DNA from: a virus
Reading direction: 5' to 3' (one strand)
DNA: 64,000 bases
IMG/VR virus record: IMGVR_UViG_3300022745_000018
Coordinates: 32,001 to 96,000 of that record
This document shows positions 24,215-31,575 of this stretch, in pieces. The position numbers were made by a program, and so were the translations under genes. How positions within the stretch are numbered: the stretch's first letter is position 1; each line of letters starts with the position of its first letter. The notes beneath the pieces were generated by a model. The model ran no database searches and was not told the DNA's origin. It saw only the letters and a list, made by a program, of their open reading frames with translations.

Positions 24215-25879
24215 ATGAACAGAACTAACCAAATCAACGAAGCCTTCAAGAAACTTCGTTTCGAACCAAGAAACAACCAAGTCGATATCGTCAACAGAAT
24301 CATCCATGAATTTGTAGATCAGAATAAACGAAACGTGATTCTATGTGCAGATACTGGAATCGGTAAGTCAATTATTGCAGCAGTTACTGCAGAAGTTCTA
24401 TCAACAGAGATTCCTTCTGATGCCAAGAAGGGTATTTATGTCAGTTCGACGAACTCGTTGGTTGATCAGTATGCGAATACGTTCAAGGATGAGCCGATAA
24501 GTGATTGGCATCGTATCAAAGGTGCTTCCAATTATCCATGTGTCTACTTCAGAGAAAAAGGAAATCTGCAGTCAACTGGTGAAGACTGCGTCATTAAAGA
24601 CATTACAGAACAAGAACGTCAGAAGTTCTGCAGTAACTGTACTTATAAGTCAGCGAAAGCAGCGATCTATACGACACAGAACCTCATCACCAATTATTCA
24701 TACTTCATGGTGGGAAACGTCACAACGCATCATTTGCGCAACACAGCTCGTAGATTACACGTCTTCGACGAAGCTCATTTGCTAAACGATCAGTTCTGCG
24801 AACAGTTCTCCATTCACATTTCAGTCGAAACTCTGAACCGTTACATCGCCGAACTGAAAAATCAGAACGGTAAAATGAATTCTTATGCAGATACTCTAAC
24901 AGAAATGAGAGATCGTATTGCTGCGAAGCAGATCAAAGAAACTAACTATGTGAAGTTTATTTCGGAACTTCGAGATCAGTTCATCGGAATACATTCGAAA
25001 ATGATGTGGTTATCTTCCATGATTCCGGATTTGATGGTACGAAAGAAGATGCAGAAAGCAGCATCCAAGTACGATAAGATGGGGTGTAGGATGAAAGCGT
25101 TCTTCAATCCAGGATATGAACATGTGTTTGAAGATAAGAATCCTAACGAAATCACCATCAAACCAATCTTCGTATCTGATTCCATCTCAGATCTTTTGGG
25201 AGAAAAGAATCTCTTCATGACCGCGACGATGTCGATGGCCTATGCCAAGGATACGATGTCTCTACCAGCGAAGGACACGGCTTACATCGATGCAGGTACT
25301 GTATTTTCTCCACAGAATAGACCATTGTTCTTTTTGGGTAAGCGGAATCTGAATTACACGACGATGCAGAATGAAGATACTTTCACGCGATTGAGCGAAC
25401 TGACGAATGCGATCATCTCTCATCATAAAAATGAGAAAGGCATCATGCTGACTCCGTCGTTCTCAGCGACCGAGAAGCTGTGTAGGAATCTGAAAGGGAC
25501 GAAGGTGTTCGAACACAAGTCAGGCACGAAAGTATCCGAGATCATTGATCAGTTCAAATCATATAAGGGTTCAGCGATTCTCATTAGCCCTAGCATCTTT
25601 GAAGGCCTTGATTTCAAAGATGACCATTCGAGGTATCAGATTATCATGAAGACGCCATACCCAAGTCTTGGTGATAAACGGATGAAATACATCTGTGATG
25701 TCTACGGTCATGTCTATAGAGAAATCGGTTTGTATAAGATCATCCAAGGTGTAGGAAGATCAATTCGTTCAGAAACAGACACAGCAACTACATACTTTTT
25801 AGACAAATCGTCCCAGACACTGTTCGAATCAGATCAGAATCTGTGGGCCGATAGATTCGATGTCAAGGTGACCGCATGA
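24215..25879 (+). CDS. DinG/XPD-family SF2 helicase
   Basis: Q motif, ADTGIGKS, Cys cluster, DEAH, TAT, EGLDFKDD, QGVGRSIR. Confidence 0.9.
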   Translation: MNRTNQINEAFKKLRFEPRNNQVDIVNRIIHEFVDQNKRNVILCADTGIGKSIIAAVTAEVLSTEIPSDAKKGIYVSSTNSLVDQYANTFKDEPISDWHRIKGASNYPCVYFREKGNLQSTGEDCVIKDITEQERQKFCSNCTYKSAKAAIYTTQNLITNYSYFMVGNVTTHHLRNTARRLHVFDEAHLLNDQFCEQFSIHISVETLNRYIAELKNQNGKMNSYADTLTEMRDRIAAKQIKETNYVKFISELRDQFIGIHSKMMWLSSMIPDLMVRKKMQKAASKYDKMGCRMKAFFNPGYEHVFEDKNPNEITIKPIFVSDSISDLLGEKNLFMTATMSMAYAKDTMSLPAKDTAYIDAGTVFSPQNRPLFFLGKRNLNYTTMQNEDTFTRLSELTNAIISHHKNEKGIMLTPSFSATEKLCRNLKGTKVFEHKSGTKVSEIIDQFKSYKGSAILISPSIFEGLDFKDDHSRYQIIMKTPYPSLGDKRMKYICDVYGHVYREIGLYKIIQGVGRSIRSETDTATTYFLDKSSQTLFESDQNLWADRFDVKVTA

Positions 25880-26562
25880 ACTTTCTAGATGGGCCATTCA
25901 CTAAAGGTGATGTAGAGATTCAAGAAGTGAATCTTGATAGGGATGATTCTGGTCCCTATCGCATTTACATTGACGAAGAAGGAAACAAATATGAGTCAGT
26001 GACATCGTTCATTGGTCGCTCAGATCCTTCTAAAGAAGCCAGTCTCCAAGCTTGGAAGAATGCAGTTGGGTTGGAAGAGGCTAATGCGATATCAGAAGCA
26101 GCAGCAACAAAGGGTACTGCAGTCCACCTTGCATGCGAACAGTACATCGCTGGGTTGCGATGGCAGGACATCTCGATGTTCTGCAAAGCAGACTTTCTAT
26201 CAATCAAGAAACTCTTGGATGCAAAACTGTCTAAAGTAATTGGATCTGAGTTGCGGATGTACTCGAAACGTCTTAAGCTGGCTGGTACGACGGACTTGCT
26301 GGCTTCCTGGGACAATGAGATCTCAATCATTGACTTCAAAACATCTGGTAGAATCAAGTACAAAGATGAGATTGATGGGTACTTTCTTCAGATGGCTGCG
26401 TATGCTGCAATGGCATACGAGATGTATGGGATTCGAGTCAAGCATTTAGTCGTTATCATGGCGGTAGATGGTGACCCCAATGCATATGAATACGCCGAGA
26501 CAGTCGGTTATTGGCTGAACAAATTGATAGAGCTTAGAAGGACATATCCAGCTCTCCAGTAA
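25876..26562 (+). CDS. PD-(D/E)xK exonuclease
   Basis: YESVT, GTAVH, E, AGTTD, IDFKTS, LQMAAYA. Confidence 0.85.
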   Translation: MNFLDGPFTKGDVEIQEVNLDRDDSGPYRIYIDEEGNKYESVTSFIGRSDPSKEASLQAWKNAVGLEEANAISEAAATKGTAVHLACEQYIAGLRWQDISMFCKADFLSIKKLLDAKLSKVIGSELRMYSKRLKLAGTTDLLASWDNEISIIDFKTSGRIKYKDEIDGYFLQMAAYAAMAYEMYGIRVKHLVVIMAVDGDPNAYEYAETVGYWLNKLIELRRTYPALQ

Positions 26563-26592
26563 CTATCGCGATGCTGTCGGTTAAATATATGC

Positions 26593-26865
26593 ATGACAGC
26601 AGTAACAAGATTGGGTGATTTATGCTCTGGTCACGGAGTTTGTTCACCTAGACCATCAACGTCTGGTTCTCCAGACGTCTTTGCGAATTCAAAACCAGTA
26701 CACAGACAACATGATCTGTGGGGACAGCACTGTCTACATACATCTGAACTTTCTGGTGGTTCGTCTACTGTTTTCGTTAATAGCCGTCCACTTGGACGTG
26801 TGGGTGATACTATAGCATGCGGGTCAACCGTCGCGAACGGTTCGCCAAATGTGTTCTCAGGGTAG
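26593..26865 (+). CDS. PAAR spike-tip protein (gp5.4-like)
   Basis: AVTRLGDLCSGH, GSPDVF, H, GRVGD.IACGS, GSPNVF. Confidence 0.92.
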   Translation: MTAVTRLGDLCSGHGVCSPRPSTSGSPDVFANSKPVHRQHDLWGQHCLHTSELSGGSSTVFVNSRPLGRVGDTIACGSTVANGSPNVFSG

Positions 26866-26868
26866 TAG

Positions 26869-27543
26869 ATGAAAAGAAACGAACTGGCTGAAGGTATCCA
26901 ACATTACCTAGGCAATCCTTTATTAAAAGCCGCTAGACAGCCGCTCCAATTTACCATGGAGCAAGCTAAGGAATATGCTAAGTGCGCCCGTGATCCGGTC
27001 TACTTCATTGAGAACTATGTAAGGATCGTTTCGCTGGACGAAGGTCTTGTTCTATTCAAGATGTATCCGTATCAGAAACGAATGATTCGTGCGATGCACC
27101 ATGGTCGAAAGGTCGTGGGTAAGATCTTTAGACAGGCTGGTAAATCCGCGATCTGCGCTGCATACATTTCTTGGTATATCACGTTCAATGGACACAAGAC
27201 AGCGGCCATCTTAGCAAACAAAGCATCGATTGCTAGGGAGATCTTCAGTAGGATTCAAGTCATTCTCGAGAACCTTCCTTTTTGGTTGCAGCAAGGTGTC
27301 TTGGAATGGAACAAGACATCGTTGGAATTAGAGAACGGTTCCAAGTGCTTTTGTGCAGCAAGTTCGCCTTCTTCTGTTAGGGGTAAGTCGATCAATCTAC
27401 TTTTTTGCGTCGCTGGTGAGACAAAAGTTCATCTTCGAAATAAACTAACTGGCGAAATTGTTGAAGTACCTATATCTGACTTGAAGGGTTTGCTTAGAAG
27501 AGAGGAGGAAGATGATGAAGGATTTTCAATTTCCCTCAATTAA
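26869..27543 (+). CDS. gp17: Large terminase fragment 1 (ATPase N-part, 179 aa) fused to short N-intein 1
   Basis: YLGNPLLK, RQAGKS Walker A, EWNK, ELENGS, RGKSINLLF then CVAGETKV...TGEI (intein block A). Confidence 0.93.
   Translation: MKRNELAEGIQHYLGNPLLKAARQPLQFTMEQAKEYAKCARDPVYFIENYVRIVSLDEGLVLFKMYPYQKRMIRAMHHGRKVVGKIFRQAGKSAICAAYISWYITFNGHKTAAILANKASIAREIFSRIQVILENLPFWLQQGVLEWNKTSLELENGSKCFCAASSPSSVRGKSINLLFCVAGETKVHLRNKLTGEIVEVPISDLKGLLRREEEDDEGFSISLN
27406..27540 (+). other. Split intein 1, N-fragment (45 aa incl. acidic tail)
   Basis: Starts with Cys1 (CVAGET) immediately before the Walker B DE. Confidence 0.88.
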
Positions 27544-28735
27544 AGAAACTGACGATTATCTAAGATTCATAGAAGAATGTATAGAACCAAACGAACATTG
27601 TGAAAAACATCACATATATCCAAAATCGATATTTGGTGACAATTCCTTCATAAAGAAGCTGTCATATAAAGATCACTTCTTTGCTCATTATTTGTTGGTT
27701 AAGCTATATGAAGCCGCTGGGATGAAATCTGAATACTTGAAGATGTCAAAAGCATTCTTTTCTTTCATTCGCTGCAATGAATATCGGTTATCTGAAATAT
27801 CATCGTATTCGGATGATGACATCACTGTGTTAGGGTGTCTATTTGAGGAAGCGAAAATTGAAAACTCTAAATCTTCAAACGGCGAAAACAATCCTTTTTA
27901 TGGTAAATCCCATTCGCCGGAAACTATTGAGAAAATACTGAATACAAAGAAGACACGTAATTCAATGAAATTTTGGACAAATGAGAAGAAAAAACGTCTA
28001 AGCGAAGTCCTCAAATCTCTACAAAATAAAAAGGTCATTTGGGTCACGAATGTTGAGACTAGAGAGAATCGTAGAGTATCTGAAAACGATCTTAACAACA
28101 TTTCAGATGAATGGGTTCTTGGTAGATATACATCAGATGAAGAGCGTCTGCACAGATCATACTCAGCCAAGGAATCCTCACATAATCTAACTTACGAATG
28201 GGTTCGCCGTGGAGATGAGCATGAATGGAGTGGCACCAAACACATAAAGTCGCTAGAGACTGGTGAAAATAGACGTCTAAAGATCAGTGATGAAATACCC
28301 AGTGGGTTTGTGTTAGGGCTCAATTTTTCGCAGTCTCATTTGGATAATCTTAGAATGGCGGCAAGTAAACGTAGAGGTAGACCACAACCTCACGTAATTG
28401 AGATCAATAAAAATCCATCCAAGATAAAGAAGACAGCTGATAAAAATCGCGGCACTACTCGCACAGAAAGTCAGAAATTAAAAATGAGTCTTGGGAGAAG
28501 AAAGTTTATCGCGAACGGGGGCAAAGCTTCGACTGCTGGTACGAAAAGATTGTTCAACAAATTATCTAAGAAGTTCGTATATGTACCTGCGAATGAAGTC
28601 TCCAATTCAATGAAAGAGAATTTGAATCTAACTGATGAAGCAGTAAGATTGGCGACGAACATGAATGGTGATAGATTGTATGTCTGTCAAACGGAAACAT
28701 TACCCAATGGATTTGAATATGTTCTTAGAAAATAA
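27512..28735 (+). mobile_element. Free-standing HNH homing endonuclease with NUMOD3-type repeats
   Basis: EKHHIYPKS...DHFFAHYLL; NPFYGKSHSPETIEKI; lies between IntN1 and IntC1, overlapping both. Confidence 0.85.
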
Positions 28736-29039
28736 TGAATGGGAAGTTTTGACGGATGAAGGGTGGTCCGATTTTTCGGCTCTGAAGATAGGTCGGGGTG
28801 CATTCGTATCAATATCTTTCTCCAATCAAGAAAGCATAAGAGTCACCGCCGATCATTTGTTGATGACGGCTGATGGGTGGGTTGCTGCAAAAAACATCAA
28901 TGTTGGTGATAATGTAAAGTCCATAGATGGCTTCATCGATGTCATTTCAATAAATGATGGTGGCGAAGGTGAGACTTTCGATTTAGTCGGTGTAAAGAAG
29001 AATTCTAGGTATTTTACGAATGATGTTCTGTCACATAAT
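28719..29039 (+). other. Split intein 1, C-fragment
   Basis: VLTDEGWSDF, TADH, TFDL, ends SHN before Cys+1 at 29040. Confidence 0.9.
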
Positions 29040-29411
29040 TGCGACGAATTTGCCCACTTGGCTCCAAAATTAGCAGAAGAGTTTATTGCATCGGTTTTCC
29101 CGACGATCTCGTCGTCAATGGAATCGAAGCTGATTATCGTATCCACGCCAAAGGGTATGAATCAGTTTTACAAACTGTGGGTAGATGCTGAGAATGGGAA
29201 GAATGGCTTCATAACGGTTGAGGGTAAGTGGAGAGAACATCCCAAGAGAAACCAGAAATGGGCGGATGAGCAATTAGCAATTCTCGGGCCCGTCAAGTAC
29301 AAGCAAGAAGTGGAATGTCTTTGGGGAAAATCCAAAATAACATTAAGAGATGTTGTGACAGGGGAAATCTTGAATGTGTCTTTAGAAGAAGCATATGATC
29401 TAATTTGTTAA
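28719..29411 (+). CDS. gp17: Large terminase fragment 2: C-intein 1 (107 aa) + 92-aa middle extein + N-intein 2 (31 aa)
   Basis: TADH (block B), VLSHN|CDEFAH, VSTPKG.N.FY, QEVE|CLWGKS..TGEI. Confidence 0.92.
   Translation: MFLENNEWEVLTDEGWSDFSALKIGRGAFVSISFSNQESIRVTADHLLMTADGWVAAKNINVGDNVKSIDGFIDVISINDGGEGETFDLVGVKKNSRYFTNDVLSHNCDEFAHLAPKLAEEFIASVFPTISSSMESKLIIVSTPKGMNQFYKLWVDAENGKNGFITVEGKWREHPKRNQKWADEQLAILGPVKYKQEVECLWGKSKITLRDVVTGEILNVSLEEAYDLIC
29316..29408 (+). other. Split intein 2, N-fragment (31 aa)
   Basis: CLWGKSKITLRDVVTGEILNVSLEEAYDLIC. Confidence 0.88.
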
Positions 29412-29430
29412 ATACAAACAAAAAGATCAT

Positions 29431-30448
29431 ATGAGAGAACATACTTACATTGGAAATTTGCTTCGTAGTAGATATATTATAGTCGATGAATCGTATCTAA
29501 ATGAATATGTTGATTTGTGTTTATCAAAGGCTCTACCAACAAAGATTAGATTTGAAACGGAATGCCACCACATTCTACCTAAATGCAATAGGGCATTTCC
29601 TGAATTTAGAAAAGCAAAGTGGAATTTAGTTCACTTACGATTCGCTGATCACGTTCACGCTCACTATTTGTTGTATAAAGCAACACGTGCTGCAGAATTT
29701 GCCGCGGCGATGGTGTTTACTCTTGGCAATAGTTGCGCGTTTCCAAGAACTGATGCTGAATTGCTGGATATATTACCGATCATTGAGAAAATATGAATAC
29801 TCGCTATTCATGAATAGCGAGAGAAACCCTAACATTGGCTCAAAACGTTCGCTAGAGACCAAATTGAAAATGTCCATTGCACAAAAGGGTGTCAAGAGAG
29901 AATATGTAAAACGTATTTGGGTTCATAACTACATCGAAGATAAGATGGTGCAGGATGTTGAATTAAACGATTACATAAATGCTGGTTGGCAATTTGGCCG
30001 CACCGAAGCAACAAGAATGAAACTAGCAGACAGTAAATTAGGGACAAAGGACTCGGATGAGACTAGAATTAGAAAAAGTTTGGCGCAAAGCAAATATGCA
30101 AATTCCAGCGGTTCACACTTAAAGACATCTGAGTTTAGAGAATACCGCCGTAACATGTTCATTAAAAATAACCCATCATCATCTATGGAGGCGAGAGATA
30201 AAATTTCTGCTCGGATGAGAAAGCGCTGGGGTAATGATGATTATAGATCAAAAATGAGTGAAATGTTCTCTAACATAAACACGGGAAGTAAATTTTTCTA
30301 TAACATAGAAACAAAGGAATTTCGTAGATTTAAGCTAACAGACGAAATTCCACCAGGATTTCAAGATGCAACAGGTAAAACGCATTGGGTTAAAGATCAA
30401 AACGGAAAACGATTGAAAGTCATCGATGAAACGAAATTCACGGTTTGA
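29431..30448 (+). mobile_element. Second HNH/NUMOD3 homing endonuclease, in two frames (+1 shift near 29790)
   Basis: 29431-29796 has ECHHILPK...NLV.L..DH..AHYLL; 29687-30448 has SLETKLKMS / ETRIRKS repeats. Confidence 0.75.
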
Positions 30449-30737
30449 AATTCATGGCCCGCGTGGTTGGTGCAAGTTCGATGGGATTCGAAGAAAGAAG
30501 TCTTCGTCTTTATTAAAAATAGTTTTTGAAGATGGGGCACCATTAGTGTGCACTCGTGATCACCGATTCTTTATTGATGGCAAATTCATACAAGCCGCTA
30601 AAGTGCAAACCGGTAAGGAGATGAACGGGCGTGTTGTTCATGAAGTCGTGCCCATTGATGAATCGATGAGCGTCTACGACCCGGTTAACGTCGCTGATGG
30701 CAATGCGTATATTGCGGATTGTGTTGTTAACCACAAT
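30426..30737 (+). other. Split intein 2, C-fragment
   Basis: Ends HN before Cys+1 at 30738. Confidence 0.9.
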
Positions 30738-31562
30738 TGCAGTTTCGTCGGTTCGTCGAAGACACTGATTGATGGTGACAAGATTGCTCAGATCCCATTC
30801 ATTGAACCTTTACATGAAACGACCGACAACTTGAAGATGTATGAGGCGTCAATCCAAGGTCATTCGTATGTCTGTGCGGTTGACGTCTCTAGAGGTCAAC
30901 ACTTAGATAGTTCAGCGTTCATTATCTATGATGTGACGGTGATGCCATATAAGATCGTTGCTACGTTCAAGAATAATACGATATCCACACTGACTTACCC
31001 GTTCATGATCATCAATACATGTAAAGCATACAACGATGCCTACTGTCTGGTTGAGATCAATGATGCTGGTGGTGAAGTCGCCAATTCCATCTTCTACGAT
31101 AGTGAATATGCCAATGTCTATTGGACTCATAAGGACGACTTGGTAGAAGGTCTTGGATACCCTGGAGTTCGTTCCACGAAACGTGTAAAGGGCGTCGGTT
31201 GTTCAGTCTTGAAAGAATTGGTGGAACAGAACCAATTGATCGTGAATTCATATGACATCATCAATGAAATGAACAACTTCATTGCCAAGGGTGCATCGTA
31301 TGCAGCCGACGATACTCAGATCAATGATGACTTGATGACGTGTCTTTGGTTATTTGCGTGGCTGACAAAGCAACCGATGTTTGCTGACATCACCAATACG
31401 AACATCAGAGCAGTTCTGAATAGAAAGTATGAGGATTCTATTCTGGAAAGTCTGATTCCGTTTGGATACATTACTGATGGGACGGAAGAAAGTGCAGATC
31501 CAGTGACACACTTGGATCAGATGCGAACACCTGACCCAATGAAAGATTGGTTGTTAGGGTAA
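30426..31562 (+). CDS. gp17: Large terminase fragment 3: C-intein 2 (104 aa) + nuclease domain (274 aa)
   Basis: TRDH, VYDPVNV, VNHN|CSFVGSSKTLI, VDVSRG..DSS, VEIND.G, NDDLM. Confidence 0.93.
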   Translation: MKRNSRFEIHGPRGWCKFDGIRRKKSSSLLKIVFEDGAPLVCTRDHRFFIDGKFIQAAKVQTGKEMNGRVVHEVVPIDESMSVYDPVNVADGNAYIADCVVNHNCSFVGSSKTLIDGDKIAQIPFIEPLHETTDNLKMYEASIQGHSYVCAVDVSRGQHLDSSAFIIYDVTVMPYKIVATFKNNTISTLTYPFMIINTCKAYNDAYCLVEINDAGGEVANSIFYDSEYANVYWTHKDDLVEGLGYPGVRSTKRVKGVGCSVLKELVEQNQLIVNSYDIINEMNNFIAKGASYAADDTQINDDLMTCLWLFAWLTKQPMFADITNTNIRAVLNRKYEDSILESLIPFGYITDGTEESADPVTHLDQMRTPDPMKDWLLG

Positions 31563-31575
31563 CGAGTACCCTAAC
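31553..31575. terminator. Hairpin between convergent genes
   Basis: GTTAGGGTA-N5-TACCCTAAC. Confidence 0.55.

Follow-up and report, generated by a model that had tools for sequence, protein, structure and literature searches.

Here we describe a gene for a T4 gp17-type large terminase (TerL) that is very probably fractured twice, by two split mini-inteins, so that its three pieces would be joined by two trans-splicing reactions. The gene lies in a 64,000-nucleotide stretch of viral DNA, hereafter the window, taken from a 171,909-bp virus record that is rated 99% complete. Six plus-strand ORFs lie between 26869 and 31562 (Table 1), and three of them encode terminase pieces, the product of the middle ORF being the middle piece. 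A genome-wide search returned a single TerL and two inteins, with no more of either. Since there is no other terminase in this nearly complete genome, the two trans-splicing steps are most likely obligatory, and the split gene is most likely the working terminase of the phage. We infer splicing itself, and the dominance of cognate pairing, from the sequence.

Table 1 ORFs, exteins, intein halves and endonuclease genes of the terminase cluster (window positions).
Feature	Positions	Strand	Description
ORF A	26869-27543	+	N-extein, then in-frame Cys-initiated 45-aa IntN1
TerL N-extein	26869-27405	+	179 aa; Walker A (QAGKS); ends ...SINLLF; Pfam Terminase_6N
IntN1	27406-27543	+	Cys1, core of about 30 aa (CVAGETKVHLRNKLTGEIVEVPISDLKGLL), 15-aa acidic tail, stop; IntN HMM E=8.5e-8
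HEG1	27512-28735	+	Free-standing HNH + NUMOD3, 407 aa, overlapping ORFs on both sides; Pfam NUMOD3 3.8e-8, HNH_4; PHROG 655 7.8e-16
Middle ORF	28719-29411	+	IntC1, then 92-aa TerL extein, then IntN2, then stop
IntC1	28719-29039	+	107 aa; block B TADH, block F Asp, C-terminus ...VLSHN
Middle extein	29040-29315	+	92 aa, CDEFAH...KYKQEVE; Cys+1, Walker B D-E, STP coupling motif, remaining ATPase domain
IntN2	29316-29411	+	31 aa + stop; CLWGKSKITLRDVVTGEILNVSLEEAYDLIC (CLWGKSK...DLIC)
HEG2a	29431-29796	+	HNH nuclease part only, 121 aa; PHROG 12434 1.4e-17, profile positions 5-87 of 292 only
HEG2b	29810-30448	+	NUMOD3 DNA-binding part, +1 frame, 212 aa from ATG 29810; overlaps IntC2 start; Pfam NUMOD3
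ORF E	30426-31562	+	IntC2, then TerL C-extein
IntC2	30426-30737	+	104 aa; block B TRDH, YDP, C-terminus ...VVNHN
TerL C-extein	30738-31562	+	274 aa + stop; CSFVGSS..., RNase H-like nuclease domain; Pfam Terminase_6C 2.6e-9

The terminase pieces and their inteins

An earlier, sequence-only reading of the window had placed the C-terminal half of one intein and the N-terminal half of another at opposite ends of the middle polypeptide. This is borne out by the translation, Pfam and PDB matches, and the AF2 fold, and the ORF boundaries and extein length given there are correct on translation. Other in-frame starts lie at 28707 and 28665. The match of the IntC1-extein-IntN2 product to intein and terminase families is far beyond chance. 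It matches Pfam Intein_splicing (E=6e-7), the PDB sequences of VidaL (6vgv, 8.5e-5) and CatC (6dsl_B, 2e-4) in IntC1, and T4 gp17 (8e-8), while the IntN HMM detects IntN2 at E=8.9e-14. An AF2 model of IntC1, built on 24 natural homologues, has a pLDDT above 90 and superposes on VidaL at 1.6 Å and on CatC with a TM of 0.75. Foldseek pairs the model with VidaL, gp41-1, DnaB inteins, and CatC at a probability of 1.00, so IntC1 is predicted to adopt the HINT fold. Across the 24 natural middle fragments, C108 is invariant and H46, D88, and N107 nearly so, and Cys1 of IntN2 (position 200 of alignment A1) is Cys in at least 90% of the 24 homologues.

The three exteins are colinear with uninterrupted TerLs. 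The N-extein aligns to T4 gp17 residues 86-252 (E=4.5e-36), the middle extein to about 254-353, and the C-extein to 355-564, and in the intein-less homologues L008-L019 the middle extein is joined directly to both of its neighbors. Intein 1 is inserted between the equivalents of gp17 Y253 and I254, within the Walker B strand and one residue ahead of D255-E256. Intein 2 falls between the equivalents of residues 353 and 354, where the ATPase domain ends.

Judged by their residue set, both inteins belong to class 1, with every splicing residue intact: Cys1 in IntN1 (CVAGET) and IntN2 (CLWGKS); TADH, FDL, and SHN/C in IntC1; and TRDH, YDP, and NHN/C in IntC2. IntC2 matches CatC (PDB 6dsl_B) at E=6e-11 and the IntC HMM at 3e-24. 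Homology (to CatC for both IntC1 and IntC2, and to VidaL for IntC1) and size (an IntN no longer than about 40 aa and an IntC of at least about 100 aa, encoded by different ORFs) place both inteins in the atypically split terminase family that includes AceL-TerL, GOS-TerL, Cat, and VidaL. The N-inteins of about 30 aa in the sequence-only reading hold for both cores. IntN1 is 45 aa as encoded, of which only about 30 are intein core; its 15-aa acidic tail is the Shine-Dalgarno sequence (GAGGAGGA) and ATG of HEG1 read in another frame. The contiguous homologue L003 runs straight into its IntC part at the point where the IntN1 core ends.

In the assembly that we propose, a single TerL gene would have been fractured twice by two distantly related class 1 mini-inteins, each cut by a free-standing HNH/NUMOD3 gene in the loop after its first 30 or so residues. 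The ORFs, five or six in number, are tightly packed and overlap in part; they would probably be co-transcribed and would yield three terminase products: the N-extein with IntN1, the middle extein between IntC1 and IntN2, and IntC2 with the C-extein. IntN1 would dock on IntC1 and IntN2 on IntC2, and the two trans-splicing reactions, in either order, would produce a 545-aa TerL with Cys at both junctions. Partner discrimination would come mainly from long divergence (23% IntC identity and opposite net charge) rather than from selection specific to this lineage.

It is very improbable that the pieces instead assemble non-covalently without splicing, or that the gene is a decaying pseudogene. A fragmented phage ribonucleotide reductase is reported to assemble via interaction domains (PMC3045599), and the division of HEG2 itself into two ORFs could be taken as a sign of decay. 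Against both possibilities, Cys1, TxxH, the block F Asp, HN, and Cys+1 are intact in both inteins, the terminase ORFs, all three of them open, are colinear with their homologues, and intein 1, if unspliced, would interrupt the Walker B strand. Nor is there an alternative TerL in the 99%-complete genome, and on that ground we rejected the reading of the gene as a pseudogene along with that of a second terminase elsewhere.

Endonuclease genes and the origin of the splits

Each break in the TerL gene contains an HNH/NUMOD3 homing-endonuclease gene. Both HEG1 and HEG2 are free-standing and lie between the halves of an intein on the same strand, as in fractured genes. The HNH motif of HEG2a matches that of HEG1, and HEG2b is 52% identical to the C-terminal part of HEG1 over 27 aa. 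HEG2 (29431-30448) is interrupted at the linker between its domains, leaving one ORF for HNH and another for NUMOD3, and a perfect 22-bp palindrome at 29800-29821 spans the ATG of HEG2b. The break and the palindrome could reflect a decaying gene, a two-subunit enzyme, or a hairpin for translational control.

A terminator-like hairpin follows the last ORF at 31553-31575, and no convincing terminator was found inside the 26869-31562 cluster. Together with the overlapping ORFs and the overlap of the IntN1 tail with the start of HEG1, this suggests that the cluster is transcribed together as one transcript with coupled translation. Scans with the T4 late-promoter consensus and for sigma-70 promoters returned nothing above chance. 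Directly upstream of the terminase (25876-26865) are genes for a PD-(D/E)XK-type exonuclease (PHROG 298) and for a PAAR-motif protein of 90 aa (PHROG 281), and a small-terminase gene was not seen at its usual position.

In relatives, each site can be occupied alone. Site 1 carries a contiguous mini-intein in L003, L134, and L135. It is split in L133, where a full-length orthologue of HEG1 (43% identity) occupies the same intein break, and in L136 and L006, where the inserted genes are of the GIY-YIG type. Site 2 is split in L005, L094, L002, L001, L152, and L088, and in the cultured phages Vibrio phage VP-1, Aeromonas phage PX29 (annotated 17A/17B), Serratia 92A1, and Yersinia MHG19. L132 (1957-4416) shows the window's layout in unsplit form: one 820-aa ORF, for a terminase that shares 59% identity with the middle piece of the window, carries contiguous mini-inteins at exactly these two sites.

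Two metagenomic terminase alleles, L136 and L003, capture as a before-and-after pair how an intein goes from contiguous to split. Their DNA is 96.6% identical, and L136 (738-1759, against 941-946 in L003) contains a 1,022-bp GIY-YIG-type endonuclease cassette inserted exactly at the homologous split loop. The insertion falls after the first 31 or so residues of the site-1 mini-intein, which is contiguous in L003 and split in L136; it gives the IntN a stop five codons on, while the IntC retains an ATG start.

The nearest relative of IntC1 is 49% identical to it and that of IntC2 43%, whereas the two share only 22.9% identity with each other. Since each intein is closer to inteins of other phages, and each site is found occupied alone, IntC1 and IntC2 look like two independent acquisitions rather than a co-evolved pair. 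In the IntC tree the site labels cluster (27 changes, compared with 79 in shuffles), with the sites not monophyletic and support low. For phage biology, the locus shows the extent to which homing endonucleases can break up an essential gene while the phage survives.

Distribution and relation to known systems

The IntC-extein-IntN layout recurs in uncultured phages and is not unique to this genome. When 1.84 billion cluster representatives were searched exhaustively with HMMER, 2,696 matched, and 35 of the best 150 have an IntC at the start and an IntN at the end; as matches were ordered by their resemblance to the query, this is a count rather than a frequency. About two dozen of the 35 have the simple IntC-extein-IntN form of 220-270 aa. 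No second complete doubly split locus was found among approximately 200 TerL loci from IMG/VR and JGI metagenomes. In GenBank phages, tblastn returned only singly split or contiguous terminases (PX29 17A/17B, VP-1, Serratia 92A1, Yersinia MHG19, and Campylobacter phages). The two GenBank phage records with 98% coverage are both single splits.

Inteins of the atypically split family are found at no fewer than four places in TerL: at Walker A, at several positions shortly before Walker B, just after its D-E, and at the end of the ATPase domain. Some proteins of a group comprising P0100, P0093, P0167, and P0125 have two family inteins flanking the Walker B Asp-Glu; mini-exteins of 4-8 residues (CLDE, CNMVYIDE) lie between the end of one IntC and the start of the next IntN, and some members have three intein C-parts. 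P0042, P0044, P0061, P0080, P0139, and others carry an in-frame insertion between the IntN and IntC parts of the Walker B-site intein. In P0042, the IntN and IntC starts are 263 aa apart, compared with 24-71 aa in contiguous mini-inteins, and the insertion is at the same loop where the window's inteins are split. In L052 and L209, IntN and IntC matches upstream of Walker B are on separate ORFs. The L052 junctions (QGK/C and HHN/T) place its intein at the Walker A site, so split members of the family occur at three sites in terminases.

Fractured genes with atypically split terminase inteins were already known, and the window adds a variant in which a natural gene is split twice. The known examples (the GOS 'Terminase' locus of Dassa et al. 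2009, PMC2677866; AceL-TerL; GOS-TerL; Cat, 6DSL; VidaL, 6VGV) have, like the window's inteins, a short IntN of approximately 25-37 aa and a long IntC of approximately 104-122 aa, and share with them Cys1/Cys+1 class 1 chemistry, a TerL host, and similarity of sequence and fold. The published cases that we consulted describe one split intein per gene (PMC2677866 for GOS), whereas the window has two in one gene and one protein that bears halves of two different inteins. The fractured genes of Dassa et al. 2009 (PMC2677866) resemble the window in combining a phage enzyme gene, a split intein, and a free-standing endonuclease gene between the halves on one strand. However, the window gene is fractured twice, its endonucleases are HNH/NUMOD3 rather than GIY-YIG or Vsr-like, and its ORFs overlap where theirs are separated by spacers of 27-51 bases.

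The window's inteins lie at ATPase motifs, in keeping with the known TerL intein hot spots (Kelley et al. 2016, PMC5050341), which comprise the P-loop, Walker B, and the ATPase-domain end; in multi-intein terminases such as L132 the inteins are contiguous, whereas here both are split by endonuclease genes. An engineered parallel also exists: in tandem trans-splicing and three-segment ligation (Humberg et al. 2025, PMC12707363), three polypeptides are joined through a middle piece of the form IntC(A)-cargo-IntN(B). The window differs from such systems in being natural and in having two inteins of the same family with short N fragments, and orthogonality has been demonstrated in the engineered systems, whereas we infer it in the window. 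Our literature search, which reached a minority of subscription papers, found no published account of a naturally twice-split gene.

Partner choice between the two inteins

The sequence-only reading held that IntN2 reacting with IntC1 would cyclise the 92-aa extein and that IntN1 reacting with IntC2 would delete Walker B. The geometry of both reactions is correct, and the second would also remove the STP coupling motif alongside the Walker B D-E. The comparison with SICLOPPS made there is apt in one respect, as the order IntC-extein-IntN on one chain is shared. However, in SICLOPPS both halves come from one intein, whereas here they come from two (the IntCs are 22.9% identical) and their cognate partners are on other ORFs.

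The similarity pattern described for IntN1 and IntN2 is also accurate, with C1, G4, T/S6, K7, L10, R11, T15-G16-E17-I18, and V21 in common, but it does not set the two apart. Their identity (10 of the first 28 residues, 35.7%) lies at the 62nd and 85th percentiles of cross-site comparisons, at or above background. The same pattern emerges as the consensus when 137 distinct IntN sequences at three terminase insertion sites are compared, the consensus being essentially identical at all three, and the pattern therefore indicates no special relationship between IntN1 and IntN2. Because the IntNs are generic for the family, their sequences do not reveal how cognate partners are told apart. According to a review, the IntN fragments of the close homologues GOS-TerL and AceL-TerL are interchangeable (PMC11766414), and in a 24 x 24 orthogonality screen cross-talk was mostly among atypical-site split inteins with one short fragment (PMC7090010). 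Orthogonality of the window's inteins is thus not a trivial question. Given that the enzyme is essential, we nevertheless consider it rather probable that the two inteins are functionally orthogonal.

At 22.9% identity, IntC1 and IntC2 are the lowest of 16 within-genome pairs of Walker B-site and ATPase-end-site inteins, of which this is the one from a doubly split genome; the remaining 15, with identities of 26% to 36%, each include a contiguous intein. Between genomes, the median IntC identity is 29.5% and the 5th percentile 21.7%, which puts the window pair near the 8th percentile. The low within-genome identity is suggestive but comes from a single doubly split genome. The net charge of IntC1 is -9 and that of IntC2 +3 (-4 and +7 over the first 30 aa), while the IntN1 core is neutral (0) and IntN2 has -2. 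Among 52 contiguous members of the family, the charge of the IntN and that of the IntC N-terminal region are weakly anticorrelated (Spearman rho -0.35, p=0.012, uncorrected for relatedness), which we treat only as a lead. On this reading, charge would disfavor the cyclising pair IntN2/IntC1 and not the exon-skipping pair IntN1/IntC2. AF2 models IntN2 as a hairpin plus helix with a pLDDT of 77-90 beside the non-cognate IntC1, compared with 64-79 in a control lacking IntC, a small difference and one of pLDDT only.

A leaky pair, in which some IntN2-IntC1 cyclisation or IntN1-IntC2 'exon skipping' is tolerated or kinetically minor, is conceivable but doubtful. The interchangeable IntNs of GOS-TerL and AceL-TerL, the cross-talk among short-fragment inteins in the screen cited above, and the IntN consensus common to all sites are in its favor, and IntN1, with its neutral core and acidic tail, is not charge-incompatible with the basic N-terminal region of IntC2. 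Conversely, the IntCs are only 23% identical, IntN2 and IntC1 are like-charged, and major losses are unlikely in an essential, single-copy terminase whose layout is common and conserved.

The sequence-only reading attributed orthogonality to selection, and we think it unlikely that selection in this lineage (character displacement) made the two inteins mutually orthogonal. Mispairing would yield dead products, namely a cyclic 92-aa extein and a Walker B-less TerL able to poison the pentameric motor, and both the low IntC identity and the opposite charges of the IntC halves count in favor of selection. Yet the IntC comparison derives from a single doubly split genome, and IntN1 and IntN2 are no less alike than background. 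A proxy avoidance test asked whether resident IntN2s are less like their IntN1 than are the IntN2s of other phages. It used the 24 natural middle fragments, with the absent IntN1 represented by the three nearest inteins with known partners, and gave a mean rank of 0.54 (p=0.5), no signal at low power, the power being limited by the modest degree to which IntN similarity follows that of IntC (42% identity, compared with 33% for random pairs). Independent acquisition already explains the divergence. The two are distant members of one family with closer relatives elsewhere, at sites that are also occupied singly, so any orthogonality is more simply a by-product of old divergence; passive divergence of independently acquired inteins fits the data better than selected orthogonality.

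Orthogonal split-intein pairs for three-segment ligation are still sought by protein engineers (PMC12707363, 2025), and short N-inteins are prized for being accessible to synthesis. A phage that joins three pieces of an essential enzyme with two same-family, short-IntN inteins would represent a natural solution to three-segment ligation, and public data hold at least two dozen comparable middle fragments, which form a comparative set on partner choice. Tentatively, doubly split terminases may be natural tandem trans-splicing systems in which same-family inteins with short IntNs discriminate through a few specificity residues or charge patterns. If so, the window pair, with a strongly acidic IntC1 and a basic IntC2 N-terminal region, would supply ready orthogonal N-intein tags of about 30 aa, together with natural data from which the code of partner recognition could be learned. 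In a weaker variant of this idea, a leaky mispairing product, either the cyclic 92-mer or the Walker B-less TerL, may have a regulatory role.
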